Shown: positions 6,901-28,042 of the stretch, piece by piece
How the letters are laid out: the number at the start of each line of letters is the position of its first letter
Position numbering within the stretch: the first letter of the stretch is position 1
From: a bacterium
GTDB taxonomy: Bacteria; Cyanobacteriota; Vampirovibrionia; Gastranaerophilales; JBAXKC01
Direction: 5' to 3'
NCBI GenBank assembly: GCA_037137535.1
Contig: JBAXKC010000002.1
Location: 32,001-96,000, forward strand
DNA: 64,000 nucleotides
Notes under the pieces: model-generated
Databases searched by the model: none
What the model was told of the DNA's origin: nothing
What the model saw: the letters and a program-made list of their open reading frames with translations, nothing else
Position numbers and translations under genes: made by a program

Positions 6901-8074
6901 TATAACCAACTATATTATCCTTATTTTTACTCATAATTAATTCAAATTGTTTATTACAACCTAAATAAGAACCATTAAAATCTTTAAAAAATATTGCATC
7001 AGGTATTGAGTTCAATAAACCCTCTAATAACAATGTCTTTTCTTCCAGAATTTTATTAGTTTTAATGGCCTTATATCTTGATAGAAATAAAAATAAACAT
7101 AATATGGCTAAGTTGAAAAATATAAAATAAATTACGGTTATTAATCTATTTATACCTTTATAAGCAGTATTAGAAGGTATAATAATAACCAAATGGTAAC
7201 TATCTGACAAATGTGAAATTATTGCTTCTTTTAAAACATTATTCTCTTTATAATCTTGAAGTTCATCAATTTTTTTATCAATAAGACCATGTTGCTTTGG
7301 GAGTAAATGATTTAGGACCTCTTTATTAAGATTGGAATTTCCATTTTGATTAGCTGAAGCAATATTGGTATAATTTTTACCTATTAAAAATAAGTCAGAA
7401 GCATTATATTTTGCTTTTAGTTCTTTTAATAAAGGCGTTAGATTACTAATTGCAATATCTATACCAGCTACACCTAATAAAACATTATTAATATATATAG
7501 GCTTAGAATAAGTAATCATCGGTATTTTTATATCAGGATCACTATATAAATCGCTCCATATACCTTTTTTAGCTTTTATTGCCTCAAAATAATATGTATC
7601 TTCTTTAGGTGTAAGTCTAGTACTATCCCCATAAGTTTTACTAATTTTATTATTTTTTTTAGTAAACCAAGTATAGTGGTCAGGTTTATTATTTGTCAAT
7701 TGAGGGTTAACTTGAAACCAAACACCTTCAGTCCAAGGAGTATTTTTAGCTATAACATAAATAAATGGTGTTATTTCAGATAAATATTTATCAATATAGT
7801 CCCTATCTTTTATTTTACTTTTATCAAATGAGTTCTCAATATAGTTTGATAATAAAATATTATTATTTTCTACGTTTTTTACTACATCATTTAAAATAGT
7901 AAGTGATGTTCTTGCTTTTATATTGTGCATTAAAGTGTTTTTCATTGTTCTGATAACTATATCAGTACTTTTTATCGCAAATAAAAAAGTCCCTAATAAA
8001 AGAGATATAGTAAATAATAATGAAATAGTAAGTTTCAAGTATTTTTTATCTATTAATTTATTTGTTATATTCAT
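3989..8074 (-). CDS. Hybrid sensor histidine kinase (Cache-like, TM, 3 PAS, HisKA, HATPase, 2 receivers, HPt)
   Basis: [28 protein letters not shown], receivers LLDYLMP and LMDCQMP, HPt [11 protein letters not shown], Cache-type WSDLY..ITYSKPI. Confidence 0.95.
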
Positions 8075-8101
8075 ACACTTAATTGCTCCTAATATAAAGC
8101 A

Positions 8102-9626
<1,525 letters not shown>

Positions 9627-9627
9627 A

Positions 9628-10026
9628 TTATTCCTTAATCAGATTAAATTCTACTAACTTTTGAATGAGTTTTTCTTTGACGATTGGCTTAACAATATAA
9701 GCTTCACATTGTGATCTAAAGGCTTTTTTAATATTATCAGAGTCATCTAGAGCAGTTGTCATTATAACCTTTGTACCATCAAGATCATATTTGCCTTTTT
9801 CTTTTTCTATTTCTCTTATTTTATCAAGTGCAGTATGACCATCCATTTCAGGCATCATAATATCAAGACAAATGAGGTCATAAGCATCCCATTCATCCAA
9901 TGCAAACTTTACCGCTTCTACTGCTTCTACTCCGTTAACTGCTACATCACATTGACCATAAGCAGAAAGATATTTTATAAGAATTTTCCTGTTTACAAAG
10001 TCATCATCGACAATTAATATTTTCAT
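9628..10026 (-). CDS. Single-domain response regulator (CheY-like)
   Basis: ILIVDDD, LDIMMP, YIVKP; inside the che operon. Confidence 0.9.
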   Translation of the reverse strand: MKILIVDDDFVNRKILIKYLSAYGQCDVAVNGVEAVEAVKFALDEWDAYDLICLDIMMPEMDGHTALDKIREIEKEKGKYDLDGTKVIMTTALDDSDNIKKAFRSQCEAYIVKPIVKEKLIQKLVEFNLIKE

Positions 10027-10035
10027 ATTTTACTC

Positions 10036-10851
10036 CTATAAAATGTTTTTTAAGTATACAGTCGGTTGAACATATTCGAATTTATATTGCTTTTGATTAA
10101 GACTTTCTGAATGACCAATAAATAAAAGGCCCCCACCTGTAAGCACATTGTAAAACTTCTTTATAAGTTGTTCTTGAGTCTCAAAATTAAAATATATCAT
10201 TACATTTCTACAAAAAATAATGTCAAAAGTATTTTGAAAGGGAAAATGATCCATTAAGTTAAAGGTCCTAAAAGTTATTAATTGCTTTAACTCAGGAACT
10301 ACAGCGTATTCATCCCCGACACGAGTAAAATATTTTCCAAGAAAATATGGATTAATCATATCTTCAGGATCTAGTTTATAAGTAGCTTTTTGTGCTTTTT
10401 CTATTATACCTGCGCTGACATCTGTTGCTAAAATTTTAATATTAATACCTGGTGGTAAATATTCTTTTAAAACAATTGCCAAAGTATAAGCCTCTTTTCC
10501 ATTAGAACAAGCAGACGACCATACTCTTATTTCATTGTTTCTTAGTATTCTAGGATTTTTTTTAAAAATAGAATCAAGTTTATTTCTAATAAATTCAAAA
10601 TGGTTATCTTCTCTAAAGAAATTAGTTTTATGAATTGTAATCTCATCAACAAATTGAGACCAATGAATACTTTTAGAGTTATTGATAAGAAACGTATAAT
10701 ATTCCTGATAAGTTTCTATGTTAAGCGCTCTCATCAATTTACCGACTTTTGACTGAACCATTTCACGCTTTGCTTCACTTATATGAATACCTAACTTATC
10801 ATATATAAGCATTTTGAAGTTATCAAATTGTTTATCTTTTAGTTTTTCCAA
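10036..10851 (-). CDS. cheR: Chemotaxis methyltransferase CheR (TTG start)
   Basis: TNFFRE, WSSACSNG, DIIFCRNVMIYF, GHSESL. Confidence 0.96.
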   Translation of the reverse strand: MEKLKDKQFDNFKMLIYDKLGIHISEAKREMVQSKVGKLMRALNIETYQEYYTFLINNSKSIHWSQFVDEITIHKTNFFREDNHFEFIRNKLDSIFKKNPRILRNNEIRVWSSACSNGKEAYTLAIVLKEYLPPGINIKILATDVSAGIIEKAQKATYKLDPEDMINPYFLGKYFTRVGDEYAVVPELKQLITFRTFNLMDHFPFQNTFDIIFCRNVMIYFNFETQEQLIKKFYNVLTGGGLLFIGHSESLNQKQYKFEYVQPTVYLKNIL

Positions 10852-10924: not shown

Positions 10925-12901
10925 TTAGAAGCCTTGCATATCATCTTCTAAAGGAATTACATCTTCAGGTCTAACTGTTTTTGTAGTTTTATTAGATGCA
11001 AAACTATTATTAGAAATTCTTCTGTTAATATTCGGAATTACTTTTCTTTGAAAAGATCTATCAGAAAGTGCAATTTGAGCTTGTTCCTGAATAGCGTTTG
11101 CGCCATTAACAAGTTGAACCAGAGAATTAACAATCTCTTTCATATTAACAGACTGTGAAGATAATTCTTCTGATGCTGAGGCACTTTCTTCAGCCGTTGA
11201 TGCATTAGATTGAACAACTTGTTCCATTTGTGAAATTGCTTTATTAATTTGAGCAATACCTTGAGCTTGTTCTTGACTTGCTGCTGCAACTTCGTCAAGA
11301 AGTTCACTAACTTTTTGAGCTTGATCATTAATTTCCGCTAATGATTCATTTACGTTTCTTGAAACATTAACACCCTGTTCTGATAAATGAATATTGCTTT
11401 CAATAATTTCAGCAGTGTCTTTAGCAGCTTGAGCACTTCTTTGAGCAAGATTTCTAACTTCTTCGGCAACTACTGCAAAGCCCATACCTGCTTCACCTGC
11501 TCTGGCTGCTTCAACAGCAGCGTTTAATGCAAGAATATTTGTTTGGAAAGCAATTTCATCAATTACTTTAATAATTTTAGCAATTTGATCACTTGATTTT
11601 TTAAGCTCTGCCATAGAAGTCATCATTTCTTGCATTTCATTATTGCCTTTGCTTGCTGCATCTTTGGCATGTTTTGCAAGAATAGCAGCTTGTTTAGTAT
11701 TTTCTGTATTTTGACGAACCATTGATGCAGATTGTTCTAGAGTTGATGATGTTTCTTGAATAGAAGCGGCCTGCTCAGCACTACCTTCTGCAAGTTGTTG
11801 GCTTGATGCCGATAATTGACCTGATGCCGAAGACACTTGGCTTGCACTTTCATTTAAGCCGTCAACAATTCTATTAATAGGTTTGGTTATGCCAATAACA
11901 ATCACCCAAGCTAAGAATGAACCAAGACCGACAGCTGCAATTAATCCAATTATCATTAATCCTGATGAAGCTGCAAGGGCAATAGCTGAACTTGAAGCAG
12001 AACCTTGTGTTGCTTTCATACCGACTTCAGCCGTATCTTTTGCTGCAGCTAATACTAAATCTGCCGTTTCACTGCGTTTTTTACTAATTTCCTGTAATTT
12101 TAACCATTTATCTAAAAATGAATTCATTGTTTCTTTGTAAACAGCTCCTGCCACTTTGTTTTTTGCTATTTGTGATTGCTCAAAAGCTGAGTTATTGAAT
12201 TGTTCGAGTTGCGCAAGTTTTGAAGAAATTGTATCAAAGTTTTTATTTGTATCTCTAATAATTTGAGGATTACGTTCCGCTTGGGATTTAAAAGTATCTC
12301 TTATAATCCAATTACCTGAGTCAATTAAATCATTAACAATACCAGCTTTTTGTGAGAATTCTTTAATTTTAGCTGTCTTACCTGATGCAATTCCTTTTTT
12401 TATTTCAGTATTTTGAAGAGCAAGATAATCATAACAAGTTTTCATATAATCAGCTGCAGATTGATTTAACTTATTTTGATCTTCGTTCATTGCCTTAATT
12501 GTACTTTCTGTATCATTAAGGTGTTGTATATACTCATCAACTTTAGTCTGCGCTTTAGCAGCATTCGCTTTTAAATCACTAAGATCAGAATATTTACTAC
12601 CTAATTCTGTTGCATCTTTTAAATAAGAATTTAATTTTTCCAAACCTTTTCTAGCTTCATCAAGATATTTTGTATCGTAAGTAAATCCATAACTTCTAGC
12701 TGCCAGCATAATAGAAAGTGATGTTCTTTCAACGTTATTTGCTACCGCAACAGAAGGAACATATTCATTTGCTAATTTACCTGATTGTATTTGTGCATTT
12801 TTCATTGCTAAAACACAAAAAGTGCCTAAAACTACAGAAATGAGTAGAATGGCTGCAAAGCCTGCAGATATTTTAAAACCTAATTTCATATTATTAAACA
12901 T
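10925..12901 (-). CDS. Methyl-accepting chemotaxis protein (2 TM, helical periplasmic domain)
   Basis: [39 protein letters not shown]-terminal pentapeptide-like tail DMQGF. Confidence 0.97.
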
Positions 12902-13391: not shown

Positions 13392-16063
13392 TATTGTGCT
13401 CCTTCTTTTTCATATAAGTGCTCAATATCAAGTATTAATGAGACTTTTCCATCTCCTAAAATAGACATTCCGGAAACATATTTTAAATTTGAGAACTCTT
13501 GTCCTGTAGGCTTAACTACAATTTCTTGTCTTCCTATTACATTTCTCACAGGAAGAGCTTTAAATTTTTGATCTAATTCAACAATTACTATTAATCTAGG
13601 CTCTTCTTCAGGTTTTCCTGTCTTAAATAATTCTGATACTGAAATAATAGGCATAATGTCTTCTCTTACTTTAATCATAGACTTAATACCTTGAATACAG
13701 ACCCACTGCTCTTCTTTAGGTTGTAAAATTTGTTTAACGTTTACCGTAGGAATAATATAATTTGAACCTTCAATATCAACAATAGTTCCATTTAAAACGG
13801 CGTGATTTACTGGAATTTTAAGAATAAAGGTGCTACCTTGACCTTTAACACTATTTATCTCAAGTTTTCCTCCTATTTTTAATATTTCTGTTTTTACAAC
13901 ATCCATACCAACTCCTCTGCCTGAAATATTATTAGCTACTTCAACAGTGGAGAAGCCGGGTAACAAAATGAAATCCTGTATTTCTTTTTCACTATAATCT
14001 TTATTAGGATCAATAAGATTTTTTTCTAAGGCCTTATTATAAACTTTATCTATATCAATACCTTTACCGTCATCAGAAATTTCAATATAGATACTGCCTC
14101 TTTTATTGTATGCAAAAACTTGAACGTTACCTTGTGGAGATTTACCAGACTTAATTCTTTCTTCTTTTGTTTCAATTCCATGTGAAATCGAATTTTTGAC
14201 AAGATGAACTAGCGGATCTAGTATTTTTTCTGTGACAATTCTGTCAATTTCAGTATCATCACCTATTGTTGTAAAATTAATATCTTTACCGAGTTCATTA
14301 ATAGTATCTCTCGCAATTCTAGTAATTTTTTGAAATGTAGACTTTAGAGCAACCATTCTAAGAAACATTGAAATATTCTGTAAATCTTTTGTTATTCTTG
14401 TCATTCTTCCAAGATTGGCTATAAAGAAATTATCCGTTGCATATTTATTAATAGAATGTTGCTCAATTAAAGATTGTGCGATTATAAGCTCTCCAACCAT
14501 ATCAACAAGACTATCAACTTTACTGGTTGCAATTCTCATATATTCTTCTGATGAAGCATTTTGTTTAGTTTGTTGTACTTTTAAAGCACCTAGAGCTTCT
14601 ACTGATTTAATTTTATCTTCTTTAACAGCAACTTGACCAAATTTTAAATCTGGATATTGTTCTTTTTGAATTAATAGAACTTCATTTACATCTTCTTGAT
14701 CTAATATCTTTTGTTCAACAAGAATTTCTCCAATTTTTTTACCATTTAAGTTTATAGCTTCAACACAATGAAGTTCATAATATTCAATTTCTTGTAGATG
14801 ATGATTAATAGTGGAAATAAAACCTCTATCTTTTGCAATACTAATATCATCACATATTTTTTTTATAAAATCTGATGAAGCTAGAATTAGATTAACAATA
14901 GTCTTATCAACATCAATCTTTCCTTTTCTGCAACTATCCATTAAAGTTTCAGTTTGATGAGCAATTTTTTGAATTAAAGTTTGATTTACAAAACCTGCTA
15001 ATCCTTTTATAGTATGGAAAGCTCTAAACATTGAATGTATTATTTCAGCATCATCAGGTGTTTTTTCAAGAGAAAGAAGTTGCGTTTCAATTGATTCAAT
15101 ATGTTCTTTTGCTTCAAAGATGAAGTCCTCTAAAAACTCATCATCAACTGCATCTTCAGCATTAAGCTGTTCTTCTTGAATTTGCTCTTCTTCTTTAAGA
15201 TCTGCCAAATATTTATGAACATCATTTAGAAATTCATTATTTTTGATTAAAGTTAAATCATCACAAATCTTTTTTATTAAATCAACAGATTTGAAAAGAA
15301 AAGTTATAGTATTTGAATTTACTCTCATAGTTCTTTTTCTACAACAATCAAGTAAAGATTCAGTATCTTGAGATATTCTCTGAATTAAAACTTGCCCCGA
15401 AAAACCTGCTAAACCTTTAATAGAGTGAATATCTCGAAATAATAAGTGAATAAAGTTATCATCTTCTAAGTTTTTCTCAAGGTTAATTATATTTTTTTCA
15501 ATTGAATCAAGATGATCTTTGGCTTCAAGAACAAAATCTTCCCAAAATTCATCATTAGCAGCTTCGACTATTTCTATCGTCCCCTCGATAATATTATCTA
15601 AATTATTATTTAGCTCTCTTTCAAGGTTTATAAGGTGCTTTTGAATTTGATCGATAAAGTCTTCATCGGTGCTCATATCTAAATTTTCACAAATAGTCTT
15701 AATAAAATCTGCTGATAATAATAATAAATTAGTTATATTTACATTGACCTTACTTGTACCTTTTCTGCAACAATCCATCAATGTCTCAGTTTCATGGGCA
15801 ATTTTCTGTATTAAGGATTGTCCGACAAATCCTGATGAGCCTTTGATATTATGAAAAGCTCTAAACATTATGTTTATAGAATCGATATTATCAAAATCTT
15901 GCTCAAGAACAAGAGCATTAAACTCAATTATCTCGAGTTCCTCAATTGCTTTTATGATAAATTCAGGAAGAAATTCTTGATAATTAATAGTTTGAGTACC
16001 TACAAACATTTCCTCTTCAAGAAGGCTTCTTAATATATCATCAGGATTAAAATCTTCAGTCAA
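13391..16063 (-). CDS. cheA: CheA kinase with three HPt (P1) domains and an MshEN-like segment (TTG start)
   Basis: Three FRxxHxIKG motifs; LVDMVGEL dimerisation domain; HLVKNSISHG, DDGKG, SGRGVGMDVV; C-terminal CheW domain. Confidence 0.96.
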   Translation of the reverse strand: MTEDFNPDDILRSLLEEEMFVGTQTINYQEFLPEFIIKAIEELEIIEFNALVLEQDFDNIDSINIMFRAFHNIKGSSGFVGQSLIQKIAHETETLMDCCRKGTSKVNVNITNLLLLSADFIKTICENLDMSTDEDFIDQIQKHLINLERELNNNLDNIIEGTIEIVEAANDEFWEDFVLEAKDHLDSIEKNIINLEKNLEDDNFIHLLFRDIHSIKGLAGFSGQVLIQRISQDTESLLDCCRKRTMRVNSNTITFLFKSVDLIKKICDDLTLIKNNEFLNDVHKYLADLKEEEQIQEEQLNAEDAVDDEFLEDFIFEAKEHIESIETQLLSLEKTPDDAEIIHSMFRAFHTIKGLAGFVNQTLIQKIAHQTETLMDSCRKGKIDVDKTIVNLILASSDFIKKICDDISIAKDRGFISTINHHLQEIEYYELHCVEAINLNGKKIGEILVEQKILDQEDVNEVLLIQKEQYPDLKFGQVAVKEDKIKSVEALGALKVQQTKQNASSEEYMRIATSKVDSLVDMVGELIIAQSLIEQHSINKYATDNFFIANLGRMTRITKDLQNISMFLRMVALKSTFQKITRIARDTINELGKDINFTTIGDDTEIDRIVTEKILDPLVHLVKNSISHGIETKEERIKSGKSPQGNVQVFAYNKRGSIYIEISDDGKGIDIDKVYNKALEKNLIDPNKDYSEKEIQDFILLPGFSTVEVANNISGRGVGMDVVKTEILKIGGKLEINSVKGQGSTFILKIPVNHAVLNGTIVDIEGSNYIIPTVNVKQILQPKEEQWVCIQGIKSMIKVREDIMPIISVSELFKTGKPEEEPRLIVIVELDQKFKALPVRNVIGRQEIVVKPTGQEFSNLKYVSGMSILGDGKVSLILDIEHLYEKEGAQ

Positions 16064-18549: not shown

Positions 18550-21500
18550 ATGAAAATTGACTTGGGTTTTAATTCATTCAAGGCTAATATAACTACTAAA
18601 AATAAAGAAAACTCAAATGCAATTGATCAGAACGCTGACAAAATAAATAATGCCAATATAACAACTCAGGTGCAAACTTCTAAACCTCAATCTAATCCAA
18701 TTACAAATGTAATTAATGGATTAAATCTTCATAAAGTTAATAGTAATAGACTTAAACCTTTAGATTCGGATCAATTTAAAACACCTACTAAATCTAATAT
18801 TAATCAAAATCAACATAATATTACTAATTCAGGTGTTTCTAAGCCTGATATTATTTCTAATGCGCCATTGATAAAAAAAACAGGTACAGCAATTAAACAA
18901 ATAATATCTGCTATTGATAACACTGAAAAATCAATTAATAATCTTAAAATACAGCCCGATAAAATAGAAAGCATAATATCAGAGGAAAATGAACTACCAA
19001 TTCATAGTTCAGATTTATTAGAAATAAGTGCATCTGACAAAACAACAAAAACTCCAATATCAAAACAAATTATTGATGCAATTAATAATACAGAAAAATT
19101 AATTACCCCAAAAAGTGATTTTTCTGATAAAAATAAATCTTTAAAAAATGATATACAAATAGCTACAAGCAAAACGAACTCAACATTGCAAAATCAAGAA
19201 GTAAATGTACTAAATAATGAGATAAAATCAATTAACGGTCATGTTGATTTTCAAGATGATGTTAAACCCACTACAGATAAAACTGCAATTTCAAGCATAA
19301 AAAGACAACAACCTATATCACAGCAAATTATTGATACAATTAACAATACAGAAAAATTAATTTCACCTAAAAATCGACCAGATGTTAATGATGTGGCTAA
19401 TTCTAGTCAAATACAAATGGTTGATGATTCGATTATTCCTGCCAATAAAGAAATAAAAGAACTAAATAAAGAAGTTAAAATTAATAATGAGAAAAAAACC
19501 GAACCAATATCTAAACAAATAATATCTGCTATTAATAATACTGAAAAATTAATTTCGACTAAAAATCAAACAGAGATTAATAATCTGGAAAATTCAAATC
19601 AAATAGTAGAAGTTGATGATTCTATTATTCCTAATATGCATCAAAAAAATGATACAAATATTGATGAAAAAACCAAAGTAGATCAATCAAGTTTGGCAGT
19701 AGATAATACTAATAAAAAAGCAGCTACAACCACGCTCAAACAAATTATGAGTGCAATTGATAATACAGAAAAATTAATTAATCCAAAGAATCAATTAAAT
19801 CCTTCTAAAATTAACCTATCTGAAGATATTAAACCAAAAAAAATACAGATTTCTGCAATTCCAAATTTGGTGGATATAAAAGAAAATATTCAAATTGCAG
19901 GTAAAGAAGTAAAAATAGTTGCTAATAAAAATATGACATTTGAATCATGTCCAGTTGCAACATGGAATATTAAAATTGACGAAGATAAGTCAGTTAAAAA
20001 GCAACAAATTCAGTTTGCAAACGGAAGTCAAAACGCATTAATTACGACATATAAATACGAAGCACCGCTAAATGCTCCTGATTTAGATATTGAAGTTCTT
20101 GCTAATAAAAATCCGAATAATTTTGATACAAAATTAAATATAAATATCAGTAGTTCAACAGTTAATAAAAACGAATCACTGAAAGAAAATGAAATAAATA
20201 AAAAAATTATTACAATGAAACCAAATGAAACAGTTTCTATATCAGTTTCTAACACAGAAAAAAATATAAATATCAAACCCGAACAAATAATATCTAGACA
20301 AGACCAAGGAATTGAAAATGCCTTAATAAAAGCAAGGATTCCAACCACTAATGAAGCAAAAGAAGCTTATAGTTTAGCTAAACAGTTTATTTCCATAGGT
20401 AAGGAAATAAATTCGAATTCTGCAGCAGATAAAAATAATAATGCTGATAAAGAAGCTATAACGTTGCTTCCAACTTATGCATTAACACTTAAAAGAAATG
20501 ACATGACAAGAAATTCACTAAAAAATTACTCCGAATATGTAAAAAATGTGCTTTTAACTCCTGATTTAAAGCCAAAAGATAATGTTCATGATGATATTAT
20601 CAAAATTGCAATGCTTTGGAGCTCTTCATTAAATGATTTTAGTAATCAAACTCAATCGCTTGAAGATTTAGACGTGATAAAAGAGCAATATAGTTTAATT
20701 AAAAACATTATGAATATTCAAATTGAAGAAACAAAAAATAGTGAAAAAAGTAATGTTATAGACAATGATGGTTTAATAAAATTAACAAATTCTCAAAACA
20801 CGTTAACATCAGTAAGTTCAACAGAAAATTGTAATATCAATGCCGAAGGGAAATCTTTTGAAGCAAATGTACTTTGGTATAACGGATTAAAATCATTATC
20901 AGACATTGCTAAAACACTTGGTTACACAAGTGAACACGAAAAATTTTCAACAATGGCAAATATAGTTCAACAAAATTTAATGAAGTTCTGGGACGAGAAT
21001 CAAAATGGATTCAATTCTTTTATTGATAAATCAAATCCAGAACTATCAAAAATTGATAATACTTCACTACTGACAGCTTTAACTGTTACTAACAGACCAT
21101 TTGTAAATAAGCCTGAATTAGAAGCTGCAATTTTAAATAATGCCGAATCTCAAATATTTCCTGAAGAAGATAATCTGAATTCACATGTAAAAACAATACC
21201 AAGAGAAAAAACGGCTCAAGCAGCTCAGTATTTTGACGCTCTTATGAACTTTCAAAAAACCAATCCTGAACTTGTTTCGGATATAGAAATTAGCGAAAAT
21301 ATTGCGCCAATAATAAATAATCTCAAAAAGGATATGAATTTATTATTATCAATGAATAAACCACTAAATGGAATAGTTATACCTAATATAGATGCAATTC
21401 AATTGACTAATAGTAATGCTTGGACAGCAACAACAGTTCTTCAATTGATTAAAGGAACAGAGAATAAAATTTATGATGAAAATAAAAAAATAAAAACAGT

Positions 21501-21993
21501 TGAAGAAAATAAAATTCAACAAAAAAATGCTGATGTTATAACTTCTGAACAGCCATCTAAAATTGTGGTACAAAAACCTGAATACACAAATAAGCCTATA
21601 GCTGCATCTGAAGAAGACAGTAAAATTTCAGCTTTAGAAAAAGAAATAATAACAGAGCCAAATATTCAAATTAAAAAAGCAATAATACCAACTACAAAAC
21701 AAGTAGTAACAGAAAGTATAAAAATTGCAGCTCAAAAAGAGTTAAAAGATGCTCAAAGTAAACTGATAATAGAAAAACTTAAAGAGTCCTCAATCAATGA
21801 AGGAGCTGTTAATAATCCTGAAATTGCTAAATCAAGAAGAACTGAAATCATTAAATTCACTAAAAAATCTGATAAAGAAAAAGACAATAAAGAAGAGCTT
21901 GCTGATGGTGTATTAGCTGAAATAATGAGCACTTTTGGCGACCTTATGCAAAGTGTATTTAGCGGAATAACTAACGGAATATCCGGCAAATAA
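18550..21993 (+). CDS. Large protein: N-terminal repeats plus degenerate amylo-alpha-1,6-glucosidase (glycogen debranching C-terminal)-like domain
   Basis: EGKSFEANVLWYNGL resembles the GDE_C motif GKxVExNALWYNAL; also FWDE and NAWTATTVL (cf. QAWSVAE). Five internal repeats. Confidence 0.6.
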   Translation: MKIDLGFNSFKANITTKNKENSNAIDQNADKINNANITTQVQTSKPQSNPITNVINGLNLHKVNSNRLKPLDSDQFKTPTKSNINQNQHNITNSGVSKPDIISNAPLIKKTGTAIKQIISAIDNTEKSINNLKIQPDKIESIISEENELPIHSSDLLEISASDKTTKTPISKQIIDAINNTEKLITPKSDFSDKNKSLKNDIQIATSKTNSTLQNQEVNVLNNEIKSINGHVDFQDDVKPTTDKTAISSIKRQQPISQQIIDTINNTEKLISPKNRPDVNDVANSSQIQMVDDSIIPANKEIKELNKEVKINNEKKTEPISKQIISAINNTEKLISTKNQTEINNLENSNQIVEVDDSIIPNMHQKNDTNIDEKTKVDQSSLAVDNTNKKAATTTLKQIMSAIDNTEKLINPKNQLNPSKINLSEDIKPKKIQISAIPNLVDIKENIQIAGKEVKIVANKNMTFESCPVATWNIKIDEDKSVKKQQIQFANGSQNALITTYKYEAPLNAPDLDIEVLANKNPNNFDTKLNINISSSTVNKNESLKENEINKKIITMKPNETVSISVSNTEKNINIKPEQIISRQDQGIENALIKARIPTTNEAKEAYSLAKQFISIGKEINSNSAADKNNNADKEAITLLPTYALTLKRNDMTRNSLKNYSEYVKNVLLTPDLKPKDNVHDDIIKIAMLWSSSLNDFSNQTQSLEDLDVIKEQYSLIKNIMNIQIEETKNSEKSNVIDNDGLIKLTNSQNTLTSVSSTENCNINAEGKSFEANVLWYNGLKSLSDIAKTLGYTSEHEKFSTMANIVQQNLMKFWDENQNGFNSFIDKSNPELSKIDNTSLLTALTVTNRPFVNKPELEAAILNNAESQIFPEEDNLNSHVKTIPREKTAQAAQYFDALMNFQKTNPELVSDIEISENIAPIINNLKKDMNLLLSMNKPLNGIVIPNIDAIQLTNSNAWTATTVLQLIKGTENKIYDENKKIKTVEENKIQQKNADVITSEQPSKIVVQKPEYTNKPIAASEEDSKISALEKEIITEPNIQIKKAIIPTTKQVVTESIKIAAQKELKDAQSKLIIEKLKESSINEGAVNNPEIAKSRRTEIIKFTKKSDKEKDNKEELADGVLAEIMSTFGDLMQSVFSGITNGISGK
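18892..19780 (+). repeat. Five dispersed coding repeats, consensus (PIS)KQIIsAInNTEKLI
   Basis: IKQIISAIDNTEKSI, PISKQIIDAINNTEKLI, PISQQIIDTINNTEKLI, PISKQIISAINNTEKLI, LKQIMSAIDNTEKLI. Confidence 0.9.
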
Positions 21994-22004
21994 TTCTGAA
22001 ATAA

Positions 22005-22748
22005 TTAATCCTCTATTTCAACTTTTGCATTGGGATTAAAGGGATTAGTCCGCAATATAAGTGAATATACAAAAGGATAATCAGTTCTTAAATGGTTAAC
22101 ATATAATAACCATTGGCTTATTAGTGAAACATAAACTCTTTTTATATCATTTGAAATATGCTCATAGTCATTTTTTGATAAATTATCAATATCTTTTCTA
22201 TATTCAAGTTCTTGCATTAAATGACAAACTGCCCACAACAAATCACTAAAAAGTTCATGTTCTAATAGGTTTTGATTTTCTAAAAGACTCAACAAGAAAC
22301 TTTTATTATTAATTAGTATATCTTTAATTTTTTTTATAATTATAGAGTCATTTTTAATTTTATAATTATGGTTCTCTATGTTTTTCTTTACAGAAATAAA
22401 ATCTTTTTCTTTCCATTTTGCAGAAATATTCAATAACTCTCTTATTTTATCAAGATTTATATCACTATTAGAGAGTATTTTTAATAATTCTACTCCTAAT
22501 TGAGTAAAAAAAGCACCGATAACCATATACATTTTATTTTGAAGTGCATTTTTCTCTCTAACTGCAATTATTTTGGTAATAATTAAAGTCACAATTAAAA
22601 TTTGCAATGGCAAGAAAGCTAAATCCTGAAATAAGTAAAAAAAGGTGTCCTGTGGTTTATTAAAAATAAAAATCTGAAGAACGTAGATTCCTGTTGAAAT
22701 GAAAACCAGTAAAAAGCCCATTAATATATATTTCAGCAATTTATTCAT
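22005..22748 (-). CDS. Hypothetical membrane protein (2 N-terminal TM helices)
   Basis: Hydrophobic N-terminus with QDLAFLPLQILIVTLII, then a soluble helical C-terminal region. Confidence 0.8.
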   Translation of the reverse strand: MNKLLKYILMGFLLVFISTGIYVLQIFIFNKPQDTFFYLFQDLAFLPLQILIVTLIITKIIAVREKNALQNKMYMVIGAFFTQLGVELLKILSNSDINLDKIRELLNISAKWKEKDFISVKKNIENHNYKIKNDSIIIKKIKDILINNKSFLLSLLENQNLLEHELFSDLLWAVCHLMQELEYRKDIDNLSKNDYEHISNDIKRVYVSLISQWLLYVNHLRTDYPFVYSLILRTNPFNPNAKVEIED

Positions 22749-22770
22749 TATCTTAAATCCATTATTAATC

Positions 22771-22796
22771 TAATAATCTATTCAAATAGATTATTA
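22771..22796. promoter_or_regulatory. Perfect inverted repeat TAATAATCTATT-CA-AATAGATTATTA in a divergent promoter region
   Basis: 12-bp arms with a 2-nt spacer, too short a loop for a terminator; lies between divergent genes. Confidence 0.45.
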
Positions 22797-22950
22797 AGAA
22801 TAGAAGTAAGTGTAAAGCATAATCAATTTTAAATACTTTTATAAATTTTTATTAATTAAATTTAGAAAGATAGAGATGACTTTTATCAAAATATCTTCGG
22901 TTTGCCTTATAATATAAGCAAGTTACGTATAAAAAATTGGAAAAAAGTCA

Positions 22951-23868
22951 TTGAAAACTATAAATGAAAAATCTAAGCTTTCTCTCATAAAAAAAACAGC
23001 TGATGGAATAAGAAAAAGAGTTCTTGAGCACACTATCACCAATAATGGCGGTTATTTGAGTCAGGCATGCTCTTCTGCCGAAATATTCGCATCACTTTAT
23101 GAAGAAATCATGAATTTAGGTTCAATAGAAGCACCAATGATGCCTGAACAATTCGTTAGTGTCCCGAATAAAAACTTTCCTTTCAAAACAGGGGCTGATT
23201 TTAATGGTAAAAAGTCTGAAGAAACAGATAGGTTTATACTATCGCCAGCACAATATGCTTTAGTTCTATATGCAGCTTTAGTTGAAGTAGGGCGTATGGA
23301 CAATGAAGGAATGCTTCAATTCAACAAAGACGGAAGTACCGTTGAAATGATCGGTGCAGAACATTCACCCGGAATGGAAGTTATGACCGGCTCATTAGGG
23401 CAAGGATTAAGTCAGGCTTCAGGCATTGCAATGGCAAGAAAATTAAAGGGTGAAACCGGTAATGTATGGGTATTTATGTCAGACGGAGAGTTTCAGTCCG
23501 GTCAAAACTGGGAAGCTATTCAAGCAGCTTCATTTCATGAATTAAGCAATCTTAAAATTATTGTTGATGTAAACAGACAACAATGCGATGGAGCAATTAG
23601 CTCTGTTATGACTATTGAACCCTTTGATACTAGATTATCGTCTTTTGGCGCTCATGTAGTTTCACTTAACGGGCATGATATTCAAGGAATAATTGACGCA
23701 GCAAATGTCGATACGGGAAATAAACCACTTGTTATTCTTGCAAATACTAACCCATCAGAAGGATTTGAACTTTTAAATAAAAGAGCTCCGAAGCTTCATT
23801 ATGTTAGATTTACAAGTGCCGAAGAAAAAAGTATGTATGAAAAAGTCCTTGCGGACATAAATAAATAA
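22951..23868 (+). CDS. Split transketolase, N-terminal ThDP-binding subunit (divergent active site; TTG start)
   Basis: DRFILS, TGSLGQG, SDGEFQSGQNWEA..N ThDP motif, NGHD. Confidence 0.9.
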   Translation: MKTINEKSKLSLIKKTADGIRKRVLEHTITNNGGYLSQACSSAEIFASLYEEIMNLGSIEAPMMPEQFVSVPNKNFPFKTGADFNGKKSEETDRFILSPAQYALVLYAALVEVGRMDNEGMLQFNKDGSTVEMIGAEHSPGMEVMTGSLGQGLSQASGIAMARKLKGETGNVWVFMSDGEFQSGQNWEAIQAASFHELSNLKIIVDVNRQQCDGAISSVMTIEPFDTRLSSFGAHVVSLNGHDIQGIIDAANVDTGNKPLVILANTNPSEGFELLNKRAPKLHYVRFTSAEEKSMYEKVLADINK

Positions 23869-23881
23869 TTTAGGAAGAATA

Positions 23882-24889
23882 ATGGAAGTATTATCAAAAG
23901 TTCACGCTAAAAACCTTATAAAATGGGCAGAAGATAAAAAAGAAGTAGTTGTTTTATCAGCTGATTTAACAAGCTCTACAGAAGCAGATTTATTTAGAGA
24001 CACTTACCCTGAAAGATTCTTTTCGATGGGAATAGCAGAACAAAATATGCTAAGTTTTGCAGGTGGAATGGCACGAGAAGGATTTATTCCTTTTATTCAC
24101 ACTTTTGCCGTTTTCATATACAGAAGAGCTTACGATCAAATTGCTATGTCTGTTGCATATCCAAACCTTCCTGTAAAAATGTTTGGATTTTTGCCTGGTA
24201 TAACAACACCTGGTGGAGCTACTCATCAGGCAATAGAAGATATTTCCGTAATGCGCTCGCTTCCTAATATGACAATCTTAGAATGTGGAGATGCAACGGA
24301 AGTTGAATCCGTTACAGAACTTGCCTATTCAATTGATGGACCTGTTTATATAAGAATGTTAAGAGGCGAAATACCTAGATTATTTGATAAATCAGAACCT
24401 ATGGAATTTAAAAAGCCAAGATTACTTTCATCAGGAACTGATATAACGATAATTTCAAGCGGAATATGTACAGAAGAAGCAATGAGGGCAATTACCGCAA
24501 TTAAAAAACGAGGAATATCAGTTTGTCATTACCATATTTCAACATTAAAGCCGTTTGATTTTGACAGTATTGCTGATTCTGTAAAAAACACTAAATATGG
24601 TGTTATAACCATGGAAAATCATTCTGTAATTGGTGGATTAGGCAGTATTATTGCCGAAGGTATTGCAGAAGCAGGAATAAGCACTAAATTCAAAAAAATA
24701 GGACTTCGTGATACGTTTGCTCATGGTGGAAGCAAAAGCTATTTAATGAGCAAATATAAAATTGATGCGATTGCATTAATTGAAGAAGTTGAAAAAATAA
24801 TTGGCGAAAAGCTTAACATTCAAGAGGCCGAACTTGCAAAGGTTCATATTACAGCCGTTCATAGTTTGGCAAAAGCGGAGGCTCTCTAA
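23882..24889 (+). CDS. Split transketolase, C-terminal subunit
   Basis: SADL, MGIAEQNM, RAYDQI, ATHQAIED, GPVYIR, ENHSVIGGLG. Confidence 0.92.
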   Translation: MEVLSKVHAKNLIKWAEDKKEVVVLSADLTSSTEADLFRDTYPERFFSMGIAEQNMLSFAGGMAREGFIPFIHTFAVFIYRRAYDQIAMSVAYPNLPVKMFGFLPGITTPGGATHQAIEDISVMRSLPNMTILECGDATEVESVTELAYSIDGPVYIRMLRGEIPRLFDKSEPMEFKKPRLLSSGTDITIISSGICTEEAMRAITAIKKRGISVCHYHISTLKPFDFDSIADSVKNTKYGVITMENHSVIGGLGSIIAEGIAEAGISTKFKKIGLRDTFAHGGSKSYLMSKYKIDAIALIEEVEKIIGEKLNIQEAELAKVHITAVHSLAKAEAL

Positions 24890-26008
24890 ATGATTTCTAA
24901 TGATCGTTTTATTGTCGAATATTTAATCAAAGGAACAGAAAAAGAAGCCTATGCTAAGGCAGAAGACATTTGCGTAGAACAGACTATAGAATTTCCTAAA
25001 GATTTAGTAACAAGTCAACTAATTCTTGATCAAATAATTGGTAAGATTGATTCATTTGAAAAAGTAGCCGAGGGTTACTTAGCAAAAATCAGCTTTGCAA
25101 TAGAAATAACATCTTTTGAATTTACTCAACTATTAAACGTTATTTTTGGAAATATCAGTATAAAACCAGGCATAAAAGTTCAAAAAATTGACCTGCCAGA
25201 CTCTTTATTAAAACATTTTAGCGGACCTCGTTTTGGAAGAGAAGGAATAAGAAAACTTTTAAATGTCTATGACAGACCATTACTTTTTACTGCTTTAAAA
25301 CCGATGGGTTTATCAGCAAAAGAACTTGGGGAATTAGCTTATAAATTTGCACTAGGCGGAATTGACATAATAAAAGACGATCATGGACTTACAAATCAAA
25401 TTTTTGCACCATTTAACGACAGAGTAAAATACTGCGTTGAAGGTGTAGAAAAGGCTAATGAGGAAACAGGTTTAAACTGTATTTACGTTCCCAATATCAC
25501 AGCATCGTATGATGATACAATGACAAGAGCTGTAAAAGCTAAAGAACTTGGTGCAAAAGGGATTATGCTTGCACCTGCTATTACAGGACTTGATGCAATA
25601 AAAAAACTAGCTGACGATGATAATATGAATCTACCTATTTTTAGTCACCCAGCCTTTCAAGGAAGCTACTTAACCTGTTCTGAAAGTGGATTTTCTCATT
25701 ATGCACTTTTAGGTCAAATTACAAGATTAGCTGGAGCAGATGGAGTTATATATCCAAACTTCGGTGGTCGTTTTGCGTTTACAAAAGAAGAATGTAACAG
25801 TATTGCAAATGGTACTGCTGTTAAAATGGGTGATATAAAAGAAATATTTCCTTGCCCAGGCGGAGGAATGAGCCTTGATAAAATACCTGAAATGGTTGAA
25901 GTATACGGAAAAGAAGTTATTTTCTTAATGGGGGGCGGATTATTCAGACACAGCGATGATCTGGTCGAGAATTGTAGATATTTTAAGAAAATGGTTCAAC
26001 AATTTTAG
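24890..26008 (+). CDS. rlp: RuBisCO-like protein (form IV), resembling the Rhodospirillum rubrum (DeepYkr-type) RLP
   Basis: VEQTIE, FGNIS, GPRFG, ALKPMGL, GGIDIIKDDHGL, SHPA, YPNFGGRF, PGGGM, GGG; ATG immediately follows the upstream TAA. Confidence 0.92.
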   Translation: MISNDRFIVEYLIKGTEKEAYAKAEDICVEQTIEFPKDLVTSQLILDQIIGKIDSFEKVAEGYLAKISFAIEITSFEFTQLLNVIFGNISIKPGIKVQKIDLPDSLLKHFSGPRFGREGIRKLLNVYDRPLLFTALKPMGLSAKELGELAYKFALGGIDIIKDDHGLTNQIFAPFNDRVKYCVEGVEKANEETGLNCIYVPNITASYDDTMTRAVKAKELGAKGIMLAPAITGLDAIKKLADDDNMNLPIFSHPAFQGSYLTCSESGFSHYALLGQITRLAGADGVIYPNFGGRFAFTKEECNSIANGTAVKMGDIKEIFPCPGGGMSLDKIPEMVEVYGKEVIFLMGGGLFRHSDDLVENCRYFKKMVQQF

Positions 26009-26039
26009 GCAGAAATATTTGTTTAAAACAAAATCACTC

Positions 26040-27377
26040 TCAAGCAAACCTATCAATATACAATTTAATATCGAATTTACTTTTTAGTCCGTTATAACTC
26101 ATATAACGGACTTTTCCAAATACTTCTCGATCTTTCCAAGCTCGGTCATGAAGTCCACCTATTGACCATAAAATACCAACATATCCATTTGGATCTCTAC
26201 CATCAAGTTCATATTTATCATTAAGGTAAATGGCTATTTTAATTGCATCTTCAGGTGATCGTGTCCATTCAAGAATTTTTTTTGCCCAATACATTCTTAG
26301 ATAACCATGCATTTTACCTTTTATTTTCATTTCATTCTGACAAGCATTCCATATTAAATCATGCGTTTTTGCACTTTCAAACTCTTCCAACGAATAAATA
26401 TAACTTCTTATATCACTTCTATGATTATTTAAACTTTGCTTTGCCCAGTTAGGTAGTCCATTAAAATTATCATAATCAGAGTTATAATAACAAAAATTAT
26501 CTGATAACTCTTTGCGTACAATTAATTCTTCTAAAAAACTTTCTTTAGATAACTCAAAATTTGATTTATTTACTTCAATAGCAATTCGTTGTGAAGAAAT
26601 TTGCCCAAAATGTAAATATGGTGATAAGTTTGACAAAGCTGGAACATTTGGATTATTTCTATCTTTAGAATAATTACAAAGCTTTTCTTCAATAAAACTC
26701 TGCAATAATAATTTAGCTTCTTCTTCACCTGATTTCAGACCGTCAACAGGTTTTACTTCAAAATTGATTTCTAAATTTCTATAAACTAAATCCCAATTAT
26801 TAATATATTTATATTTAGAACAATCATATTCATTTGGATTAACAGAAGGAAATTCTTCTAAAAACTCGGGCAATTGACGCTTAATTTTATTTCTAATCGT
26901 ATAAGCACCATATTCTAACTTTGGTGATGCCTCCCATACCGGAACAATATTATGAGTATCCACTTCAAAAAAAGGAATATAAATTTTATTTAGAATATTA
27001 TTTTTCCACTCTCTTTTTATTTTTAATGGATCAAAATCTGTAATCAAACATGAAGCTTGTACCTCAGAAATAAAATTTGATAATTCTTCAACAGGATTAC
27101 CACTCAATAAAATAAAAGGAAAGTTATAATCAGTAAACTTCTTTTCTAACTCGATTAATCCATTTATCATAAAATCATATTGCTTAAATGTTGCATCTAA
27201 AAAATTTGGAACAAGACAAAAGCACACAATAACAGGTTGTTTGAATTTATTAGACAGTTCTTGAGCATAAACTAAAGCCCAATTATCACTAAATCGCTGA
27301 TCACGACTAATCCATAAAACAATAGGACCTGTTTTAAATTCTTTATCATTAAGTTTTCTTATACGTTTTAAATTCAT
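26040..27377 (-). CDS. phrB: Class II CPD DNA photolyase
   Basis: RDQR..DNWAL, SNLSPYLHFGQIS, EELIVRKELSDNF, KMHGYLRMYWAKKILEW, DGRDPNGY. Confidence 0.95.
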   Translation of the reverse strand: MNLKRIRKLNDKEFKTGPIVLWISRDQRFSDNWALVYAQELSNKFKQPVIVCFCLVPNFLDATFKQYDFMINGLIELEKKFTDYNFPFILLSGNPVEELSNFISEVQASCLITDFDPLKIKREWKNNILNKIYIPFFEVDTHNIVPVWEASPKLEYGAYTIRNKIKRQLPEFLEEFPSVNPNEYDCSKYKYINNWDLVYRNLEINFEVKPVDGLKSGEEEAKLLLQSFIEEKLCNYSKDRNNPNVPALSNLSPYLHFGQISSQRIAIEVNKSNFELSKESFLEELIVRKELSDNFCYYNSDYDNFNGLPNWAKQSLNNHRSDIRSYIYSLEEFESAKTHDLIWNACQNEMKIKGKMHGYLRMYWAKKILEWTRSPEDAIKIAIYLNDKYELDGRDPNGYVGILWSIGGLHDRAWKDREVFGKVRYMSYNGLKSKFDIKLYIDRFA

Positions 27378-27520
27378 TATTAAAAAATTATCTCTAAATT
27401 ATTATTTATTATTACATTTATAATCATTTAAATATATAATCAGTAAAACTGAAATTTACACTATAATATAAGTATATTAAATATTTCTGTATTAATTAAA
27501 TAAACTAAGTAAAGTATTAA

Positions 27521-28042
27521 ATGATAGATTTATTAATTTTCTCCACTATATATAAACAAAACCTTAGCGGCTATGCGATAAAGGCTTACATAGACGGCAA
27601 TTACAGTCCATTCTTTAAAATAAGCACAGGTGCAATATATCCTGTTTTAAAAAAATTGATAAATAATAATTTAATTATAGAAAATTCTTCCTTTTCTCAA
27701 GGTGGCCAAAAAAAAATTATTTATTCCATAACAAATAAAGGAAAAGATTTCTTTTTAAAAAAATTATTGGAAAATTTTTCCAATTCTCCTCAAAATGCTC
27801 AAAATGAATTTATTGCAAAATTTCTTTGCTTAAATGAATTAGAAATAGAATATAAATTAGAAATTATTAATAAATTAGACAAATATCTCGAATATGAAAA
27901 ATTAAAACTGGAAAAACATATATTAAAGTTAAAAGAAAATTCTCAAAATAAATTTTTACTAAGATTAGTTGAATCAAAGCAGTTTGAACTTAATGAAAAG
28001 AAAATGATGCTTAAACAAATAAAATCAGTACAAAATCTATAA
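27521..28042 (+). CDS. PadR-family transcriptional regulator
   Basis: SGYAI, STGAIYPVLKKL, KIIYSITNKG. Confidence 0.88.
   Translation: MIDLLIFSTIYKQNLSGYAIKAYIDGNYSPFFKISTGAIYPVLKKLINNNLIIENSSFSQGGQKKIIYSITNKGKDFFLKKLLENFSNSPQNAQNEFIAKFLCLNELEIEYKLEIINKLDKYLEYEKLKLEKHILKLKENSQNKFLLRLVESKQFELNEKKMMLKQIKSVQNL

Follow-up and report, generated by a model that had tools for sequence, protein, structure and literature searches.

Here we describe a three-gene module in a 64-kb window of contig JBAXKC010000002.1 from a member of the Gastranaerophilales (the window is the whole stretch of DNA that was analyzed, and coordinates refer to it unless a surveyed locus is named). The module encodes both halves of a split transketolase-like enzyme, TktN and TktC, predicted to use thiamine diphosphate (ThDP), together with a form IV RuBisCO-like protein (RLP). 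We consider it somewhat probable that this module salvages 5-methylthioribose, and probably also 5-deoxyribose, with the ThDP enzyme replacing the cupin that follows related RLPs and cleaving the RLP product to glyceraldehyde-3-phosphate (GAP). The features of the locus are:

22951-23868, + strand: tktN, 305 aa, TTG start; N-terminal, ThDP diphosphate-binding half of a split transketolase-like enzyme
23882-24889, + strand: tktC, 335 aa; pyrimidine-binding and C-domain half of a split transketolase-like enzyme
24890-26008, + strand: gene for a form IV RLP, 372 aa, of the short Rhodospirillum rubrum / Rhodopseudomonas palustris (DeepYkr) type
22749-22950, no strand: divergent upstream intergenic region, 202 nt; presumed promoter region of tktN

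All three genes are co-directional. The tktN stop codon (TAA, 23866-23868) is followed by a 13-nt gap before the tktC ATG at 23882, and the tktC stop codon (TAA, 24887-24889) directly abuts the RLP ATG at 24890. The tight linkage noticed in an earlier, sequence-only reading of this DNA thus agrees with both the coordinates and the Pfam domains, which are Transketolase_N (72.6 bits) in TktN, and Transket_pyr (114.6 bits) plus Transketolase_C (69.9 bits) in TktC.

The RLP belongs to the short R. rubrum / R. palustris type

The RLP matched Pfam RuBisCO_large (PF00016) with 122.9 bits over residues 120-357 of 372, and the three motifs on which its first assignment had been based, KDDH, ALKPMGL, and YPNFGGRF, are all present in the translation. 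Its best match in the PDB was 3qfw (378 aa; 230 bits, E 4.9e-67, residues 4-368 of the RLP aligned), which we take to be an R. palustris RLP1-type protein and which has the motifs ALKPxGL, KDDH, and PN(F/Y)GGRF in common with it. This entry is termed simply 'an RLP structure' in PMC13454268 (in excerpt). The MtnW-type structures 4nas, 3fk4, and 2oek reached 160-163 bits and carry KDDE in place of KDDH; the Photo-type structure 1ykw reached 140 bits and 2qyg 123 bits. The RLP also stayed below the NCBIfam cut-offs for MtnW (NF007095, 244.8 vs 409; TIGR03332, 188.7 vs 513.6), for type III RuBisCO (176.4 vs 497), and for OiaX (NF042437, 78.5 vs 700, with only residues 65-215 matched). NCBIfam release 20 holds no specific model for the RLP or for the transketolase-like enzyme, and the clade placement rests on the PDB and NCBIfam scores. 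These scores place the RLP with the short R. rubrum / R. palustris proteins and not with MtnW/YkrW or OiaX, in agreement with the sequence-only reading.

By homology, the RLP is a candidate 5-methylthioribulose-1-phosphate 1,3-isomerase. The R. palustris RLP1 and the R. rubrum RLP convert 5-methylthioribulose-1-phosphate to 1-methylthio-xylulose-5-phosphate and 1-methylthio-ribulose-5-phosphate in a ratio of 3:1; a cupin then frees the methylthio group, leaving 1-deoxy-xylulose-5-phosphate (DXP), and the R. palustris cupin gene adjoins rlp1 (PMC5893883, in excerpt). A protein search recovered more than 4900 relatives of the window RLP. Those with named hosts were 60-65% identical and came from Propionispora, heliobacteria, Acetivibrio, Clostridium, and metagenome-assembled genomes (MAGs); the database names of these relatives, and of the fusion proteins described below, are generic.

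The tktN-tktC-RLP triplet is widely conserved

We surveyed RLP loci in one genome per GTDB species, using an alignment of 29 RLPs as the query. At least 599 stretches matched and 539 were confirmed as relatives; the best 80, with 51-64% RLP identity to the window protein, were used (loci L001 to L080), and the other 459 were left out. According to tblastn searches with the three window proteins, tktC lies upstream of the RLP gene on the same strand in 65 of the 80 loci (referred to below as tkt loci). Both transketolase halves were found in 62 of the 80; the remainder are L014 and L072, with less than 1 kb upstream, and L077, with tktC only. With so many related loci keeping tktC, and mostly both halves, upstream of the RLP gene, the linkage cannot be due to chance. 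TktC is more conserved than the RLP itself (58-74% vs 51-64% identity to the window proteins). The tkt loci are spread over 12 named phyla, with 25 in Bacillota, 17 in Chloroflexota, six in Spirochaetota, four in Planctomycetota, three in Nitrospirota, and one each in seven more phyla, including a Promethearchaeota MAG; three further loci belong to unnamed taxa. The conservation of the triplet, anticipated from the single window, therefore holds well beyond it.

Two observations on individual loci may be added. In the Promethearchaeota locus (L057, an Asgard archaeal MAG), the genes mtnK-mtnA-tktN-tktC-RLP lie at 5000-10200, and the amino acid composition of the RLP deviates from the rest of the alignment, which could reflect lateral transfer or a binning artefact. 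A small DUF2325 protein is encoded just upstream of tktN in L004 (7625-7975) and just upstream of the RLP gene in L011 (3826-4110); both loci belong to the window's own clade, and the DUF2325 gene is absent from the window.

The transketolase-like enzyme has an intact cofactor site and an altered substrate site

The best PDB match of TktN was chain A of 6yak (125 bits), the N-terminal part of the split transketolase from Carboxydothermus hydrogenoformans, and that of TktC was 6yaj (220.7 bits), the other chain of the same enzyme. Taken together, both halves scored 391 bits against NF004559 (172.6 for TktN and 218.7 for TktC), below the cut-off of 488, and the DXS model TIGR00204 (TktC 171.8, TktN 23.5; cut-off 465.95) was missed as well. 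For a comparison of active sites, we aligned the window proteins with 48 of 51 clustered N-half open reading frames (ORFs), 44 of 59 C-half ORFs, and E. coli TktA (NC_000913.3). ORFs outside 290-345 aa (N half) or 325-345 aa (C half) were taken to be mis-called and excluded, and E. coli Dxs was left out at the H100 position, where the MAFFT alignment looked shifted.

The residues binding ThDP and Mg are conserved, with D178, G179, and N208 of TktN corresponding to D155, G156, and N185 of E. coli, as is the cofactor-activating glutamate (TktC E53, E. coli E411); each of them is found without exception in the 45-49 family members compared. H115 and R161 of TktC (E. coli H473 and R520) and the residue equivalent to S385 are likewise conserved, and R358 is represented by K or R. 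The picture is different for other substrate-contacting positions. E. coli H26 is replaced by Y in 49 of 49 N halves (window Y35) and H100 by M in 48 of 49 (window M133), while the H66 position holds Q in 32 and H in 17 (window Q101). In all 45 C halves, H461 is replaced by F (window F103) and E468-D469 by P-G with a one-residue deletion, so that the window TktC reads TTPGGATHQ vs the canonical GEDGxxHQ, with D469 lost and a glycine in its place. HMMER alignments with 6yak, 6yaj, and human transketolase confirm these substitutions. New invariant residues appear in TktN at E132, H138, and H283-Y284.

In the transketolases of yeast and E. coli, H100 and H473 contact the C1 hydroxyl of the donor, H26 and H261 act on the C3 hydroxyl, D469 binds the C2 hydroxyl of the acceptor, and H461, R358, and R520 bind the phosphate. 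Since H100 contacts the C1 hydroxyl in the canonical enzyme, a methionine at this position would fit a donor carrying a methyl or methylthio group at C1.

A cupin and the transketolase-like enzyme are mutually exclusive partners of the RLP

Fifteen of the 80 loci gave no transketolase match. We characterized them by clustering their neighboring ORFs and by family scans. A cupin is encoded near the RLP in eight of these loci and in none of the 65 tkt loci; no locus carries both. Six loci have neither partner (L011, L022, L025, L066, L074, and L076), and neighbor clustering revealed no common alternative partner among them, while L070, with only 244 nt of upstream sequence, is unjudgeable. A Cupin_2 protein of 145 aa is present in L002, L007, L015, L016, and L024, with 59-94% identity to the L016 copy. 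This copy matched Rru_A2000 (3jzv), presumably the R. rubrum methylsulfurylase, with 157 bits (E 3e-45), and the cupin is clearly Rru_A2000-like in these five of the eight cupin loci. Four of them (L007, L015, L016, and L024) also encode an O-acetylhomoserine sulfhydrylase (cluster representative in L015: TIGR01326, 584 bits, cut-off 495), accompanied by a CoA_binding_2 protein. Neither mtnK nor mtnA was found within 10 kb in any of the eight cupin loci.

In a quick maximum-likelihood tree of the RLPs (81 rows, LG+G4, SH-aLRT support), the cupin-linked sequences interleave with the tkt-linked ones, amounting to five changes of partner, at least four of which are forced by starred branches. For example, the cupin loci L002 and L007 are sister to the tkt locus L005, all three from Syntrophomonadaceae. 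The window RLP falls into a starred six-row clade of Bacillota sequences. In four phylogenetically independent pairs, the transketolase genes are lost wherever the cupin is present. Not a single alignment column separates cupin-linked from tkt-linked RLPs, and in 67 columns at least 79 of the 81 rows have the same residue. Because the two kinds of loci interleave and no column tells them apart, we read the sequences as a single RLP of uniform function that has changed its downstream partner on several occasions. The suggestion that a ThDP enzyme stands in the cupin's place is thereby strengthened. As a separate observation, the cupin-linked locus L002 contains a group II intron (domains D1-D4, 154 bits) at 18838-19148 on the minus strand.

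Both partners are also found fused to the RLP

A search for RLP relatives longer than 651 aa recovered 47 proteins with the following domain compositions:

RLP-cupin fusions (PF00016 + PF07883): 23 of 47
RLP with transketolase domains: 12 of 47
RLP with a ThiF domain: 1 of 47 (P0121, 674 aa, ThiF/E1-like adenylyltransferase)
RLP with a SorC-type sugar-binding domain: 1 of 47 (P0132, 743 aa, regulator domain)
PF00016 only: 10 of 47

Both partner types, cupin and transketolase, are therefore also found on a single chain with the RLP. The transketolase fusions are 730-1363 aa long. Four that were scanned with Pfam have the order RLP-Transketolase_N-Transket_pyr-Transketolase_C, with P0167 giving no Transketolase_C match, and the BLASTP coordinates of all 12 fit the order RLP-TktN-TktC. 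Those with named hosts come from diatoms (Cyclotella atomus, Thalassiosira exigua, T. profunda, and Skeletonema marinoi), in addition to a EukProt entry. Compared with the window proteins, the fused transketolase portions show 48-53% identity in the N half and 51-56% in the C half. The signature G[LI][TI][TS]PGG[VI]THQ is found in 10 of the 12; in the remaining two, the C half is largely missing. The 23 clusters of RLP-cupin fusions (P0129-P0155) are about 700-780 aa long, some of them representing hundreds of sequences, and P0141 and P0130 contain a stretch of about 200 residues without a Pfam match between the RLP and cupin domains.

Methionine-salvage genes and SAM riboswitches accompany some of the tkt loci

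The co-occurrence with methionine-salvage genes that had been predicted from the window was found in 14 of the 65 tkt loci, which carry mtnK and/or mtnA within 10 kb. The cluster representatives clearly exceeded their cut-offs (mtnK in L013: TIGR01767, 464 bits vs 275; mtnA in L057: TIGR00512, 450 bits vs 279). In L013, L041, L047, L054, L057, and L059, the mtn genes directly precede the module, giving the order mtnK-mtnA-tktN-tktC-RLP. Genes for ribose-type ABC transporters are likewise frequent in tkt loci.

We scanned 24 of the 80 loci with Rfam. In Clostridium ljungdahlii (L054), a promoter-like site, an S-adenosylmethionine (SAM) riboswitch aptamer (88.8 bits), and its terminator precede an eight-gene operon that encodes, in this order, a sugar-binding protein, an ABC ATPase, a permease, MtnK, MtnA, TktN, TktC, and the RLP, and that is closed by a terminator with a 17-bp stem. 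In C. drakei (L059), the same genes are preceded by a SAM riboswitch located close to the beginning of the locus, at 1440-1550. In L004, the RLP gene is followed by a SAM riboswitch, metX (478 bits vs 331), and a gene for a Cys/Met pyridoxal phosphate-dependent enzyme. No SAM riboswitch was found in the other 21 of the 24 scanned loci, including five cupin loci. Further SAM riboswitches were noted in L054 at 1129-1237 (minus strand) and at 14411-14521 (plus strand), the latter preceding ABC transporter genes, and in L059 at 11248-11360 and 14110-14221. With riboswitches flanking the operon in both species, the region is therefore a small methionine-regulon island.

Some tkt loci carry, behind or close to the RLP gene, a set of three genes that encode an LsrF-type 3-hydroxy-5-phosphonooxypentane-2,4-dione thiolase (NF006081, 481 bits, cut-off 297), an Rpe-like epimerase, and a Zn-dependent alcohol dehydrogenase. 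This set lies downstream of the RLP gene in L017 (11100-15200) and L061 (11100-15300) and is also present in L056 and L080. The epimerase could recycle the ribulose epimer made by the RLP, and the dehydrogenase and thiolase could provide a second breakdown of the 1-substituted xylulose-5-phosphate, to dihydroxyacetone phosphate (DHAP) and an acyl-CoA.

Proposed pathway and alternative explanations

In the proposed pathway, the input of the module would be 5-methylthioribose or 5-deoxyribose, the leftovers of SAM use. MtnK would phosphorylate the sugar and MtnA would isomerize it to the ribulose-1-phosphate; their genes adjoin the module in other genomes, not in the window. The 1,3-isomerization by the RLP would then yield 1-methylthio-xylulose-5-phosphate, or DXP from the deoxy sugar, and the ThDP enzyme would cleave the C2-C3 bond, releasing GAP and retaining the C2 fragment on ThDP, in the methylthio case as a 2-methylthio-1-hydroxyethyl group. 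For the next step we prefer a scheme in which the enamine would lose methanethiolate, as it loses water in phosphoketolase, giving acetyl-ThDP and then acetate or acetyl-phosphate plus methanethiol, which an O-acetylhomoserine sulfhydrylase such as MetY can convert to methionine. The main alternative is that the C2 fragment would leave as 2-(methylthio)acetaldehyde. Loss of methanethiolate is favored because the cupin serves to release the methylthio group for methionine resynthesis and because one operon is under SAM control. Whether this amounts to a new ThDP lyase, which would convert 1-methylthio-xylulose-5-phosphate to GAP while expelling methanethiol and forming acetyl-ThDP or acetyl-phosphate, and hence to a thiol- and oxygen-independent, possibly energy-conserving methionine salvage, we regard as a tentative suggestion that is rather doubtful in this specific form.

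Several points weigh against the proposed pathway. No mtnK, mtnA, mtnP, or mtnN was detected by NCBIfam within the 64-kb window, and an Rfam scan at E<=1 over 21900-27600 gave no family match and hence no SAM riboswitch. Most tkt loci are without mtn genes within 10 kb, and a SAM riboswitch lies directly ahead of the operon in only two of the 24 scanned loci, L054 and L059, which count as one event because they come from sister Clostridium species. A class II aldolase match is present within 10 kb in seven tkt loci (L008, L009, L010, L017, L035, L040, and L067), adjoining mtnA in L035 and L040; the module is therefore no simple replacement of the DHAP shunt. On the side of the cupin exchange, the cupins in L031, L033, and L039 are weak, with 33-38% identity to the L016 copy, and that of L039 scored 63.5 bits against Rru_A2000 vs 61.5 bits against an unrelated cupin. 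The swap test has only four pairs and is underpowered (p = 0.125), because four pairs cannot reach significance. The survey covers only the best 80 of the 539 confirmed relatives, and the RLP reaction is deduced from homology to characterized enzymes. Finally, with D469 and H461 lost, the sugar phosphate may bind differently, and the true substrate could differ from the one proposed.

A rather unlikely alternative, and the strongest one, is that the module mainly disposes of 5-deoxyribose from radical-SAM enzymes for its carbon, cleaving DXP to GAP and acetaldehyde, with sulfur salvage secondary or absent. The tkt loci come mostly from anaerobic lineages, as listed above for Bacillota, Chloroflexota, Spirochaetota, and Planctomycetota, and such lineages are rich in radical-SAM enzymes. 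Methionine in place of H100 would accommodate either a methyl or a methylthiomethyl group at C1, sugar ABC transporters are encoded within operons, and MtnK and MtnA are known from work on the DHAP shunt to be bifunctional for methylthio and deoxy sugars. However, the SAM-riboswitch control in L054 and L059 points to sulfur and methionine, as do the exchangeable partner, a methylsulfurylase-type cupin alongside an O-acetylhomoserine sulfhydrylase, and the SAM riboswitch (S-box) and metX neighboring the RLP gene in L004.

It is less probable still that the ThDP enzyme transfers the C2 unit to an acceptor aldose, or acts as a synthase feeding the RLP, so that the module would build or rearrange a thio- or deoxy-sugar phosphate. 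Canonical transketolases are transferases, and the residues for ThDP and Mg, the cofactor glutamate, H473, and R520 are all conserved; the thiolase, epimerase, and alcohol dehydrogenase after the RLP in L017 and L061 also hint at further sugar-phosphate processing. But the acceptor-binding D469 is lost, no acceptor-supplying or biosynthetic gene is conserved with the triplet, and besides mtnK/mtnA and the transporters no neighbor cluster occurs in more than 14 of the 80 loci. The import and kinase-isomerase genes rather suggest catabolism.

The sequence-only reading had itself raised a branched-sugar pathway of the apiose/apionate type, with the RLP serving as decarboxylase or transcarboxylase and apulose-4-phosphate as the substrate of the split transketolase. 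Carter et al. (2018) are said to have found both an RLP and a split transketolase in apiose catabolism, which would be a likeness to the module. Apiose RLPs are also cited in the excerpted text of the review PMC6302742. Nevertheless, we now consider this pathway highly improbable, given that the RLP falls far short of the OiaX cut-off, its nearest structure is the short RLP 3qfw, the neighbors of the module are mtnK, mtnA, the cupin, and methionine genes, and no cluster present in at least three loci matches a family known to us from apiose catabolism. Equally improbable is an ordinary pentose-phosphate transketolase that happens to lie beside the RLP gene: both halves do match generic transketolase models best, but the linkage in 65 of 80 loci, the single-chain diatom fusions, the score below the NF004559 cut-off, and the replacement of H26, H100, H461, and D469 in nearly all aligned members speak against it.

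Comparison with known systems

The closest known system is the MTA (5'-methylthioadenosine)-isoprenoid shunt of R. rubrum and R. palustris, which consists of MtnP, MtnA, the DeepYkr RLP, the cupin methylsulfurylase, and O-acetylhomoserine sulfhydrylase (PMC5893883, in excerpt). The module resembles it in the type of RLP, and orthologous RLPs occur with a cupin in eight of the 80 loci. Unlike in this shunt, the window and the 65 tkt loci have a split transketolase-like enzyme instead of a cupin, the linked operons contain MtnK and not MtnP, and the expected products would be GAP and a C2 unit, not DXP, with no thiol co-substrate needed. The missing cupin pairing is the point of difference and no evidence against the proposed RLP reaction.

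The DHAP shunt uses MtnK or MtnP, MtnA, and the class II aldolase Ald2 and handles both MTA and 5'-deoxyadenosine (PMC5893883, in excerpt). Likenesses to the module are the MtnK/MtnA entry, the predicted formation of a triose phosphate and a C2 fragment, and oxygen independence (same source). In contrast to the DHAP shunt, the task of one aldolase would be shared between an RLP and a ThDP enzyme, with GAP and not DHAP as the product.

As regards the enzyme itself, TktN and TktC share with the C. hydrogenoformans split transketolase (6yak/6yaj) and E. coli TktA the fold, the ThDP/Mg motif, E411, H473, and R520, and with the former also the split into two genes. They differ from canonical transketolases in the replaced substrate residues, the newly invariant E132 and H138, and the missed NCBIfam cut-off. 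Phosphoketolase serves here purely as a mechanistic analogy: it cleaves xylulose-5-phosphate with ThDP to GAP, and the loss of a beta-leaving group gives acetyl-ThDP. The leaving group proposed for the module would be methanethiolate and not water, which is wholly hypothetical, and no phosphoketolase family was among the Pfam and NCBIfam matches.

A full-text search of the literature gave no paper tying an RLP to a transketolase in the salvage of SAM by-products, a negative that is limited to the library searched. The word 'ketolase' does not occur in the 2018 review PMC6302742, and two papers that matched the search terms, PMC7895386 and bioRxiv 386292, are, as far as their excerpts go, unrelated to such a link. 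Overall, the interpretation given in the sequence-only reading is partly supported, and the C2-C3 cleavage chemistry is its conjectural part. Possibly, the module is a further branch of RLP-based methionine salvage with a new ThDP reaction inside.

Genomic surroundings of the module

The only other gene of the window with a potential link to the pathway is:

46454-47737, - strand: metY (O-acetylhomoserine sulfhydrylase / homocysteine synthase), NF006096, 735.4 bits, cut-off 726

This gene had been pointed out as lying about 20 kb away, and it was indeed found 20.4 kb from the end of the RLP gene, on the opposite strand. MetY is a possible user of the released methanethiol, but the gene is unlinked to the module and adds little; its only tie to the pathway is that a gene of this kind adjoins the RLP gene in cupin-linked loci.

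The upstream neighbor of the module encodes a divergent membrane protein without a known family. The region upstream of tktN contains a promoter-like site at 22794-22823, and the number of such sites is not above that in shuffled sequences; a scan of the window gave 17 promoter-like sites vs 14.6 in the shuffles and no terminator. Downstream, a class II photolyase gene (26040-27377, minus strand; TIGR00591, 618 bits) is convergent with the RLP gene, and the 31-nt gap between them contains no terminator-like hairpin. Beyond the photolyase gene follow genes for a PadR regulator and a PaaK-like ligase; the flanks are unrelated to the module. The window has a G+C content of about 30% and encodes diderm-type functions (MlaD, Lgt, pilin) as well as a chemotaxis operon.

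Two further genes of the window are unusual. Upstream of the module, beyond the gene at 22005-22748, an Asn/Lys/Ile-rich protein of 1147 aa is encoded at 18550-21993 (plus strand); it contains about six copies of a motif like ISKQIISAINNTEKLI. At 53131-54333 (minus strand), a PfkB-family sugar kinase with ribokinase-like matches is interrupted by a ferredoxin-like stretch of about 60 residues, which matches the HgcB model at residues 217-274.

Implications

To our knowledge, nearly every cell needs to salvage MTA and 5'-deoxyadenosine, and several bacterial variants of this salvage were discovered only in the last 15 years. If our proposal is true, the module would reuse a RuBisCO-like isomerase and employ a thiamine enzyme as the end step instead of a thiol-requiring cupin. 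The transketolase arrangement is the common one among the 80 closest relatives, with 65 loci vs eight for the described cupin arrangement, and its hosts include acetogens such as C. ljungdahlii and, in the form of fusions, bloom-forming diatoms. The ThDP-lyase route would then occur in anaerobes from a dozen bacterial phyla, in an Asgard archaeal MAG, and, on a single fused chain, in diatoms. The module would also assign a function to a large and distinct 'transketolase' subfamily that is now annotated generically, and it may indicate that methanethiol or methylthio-aldehydes have additional sources in anoxic habitats and the ocean.

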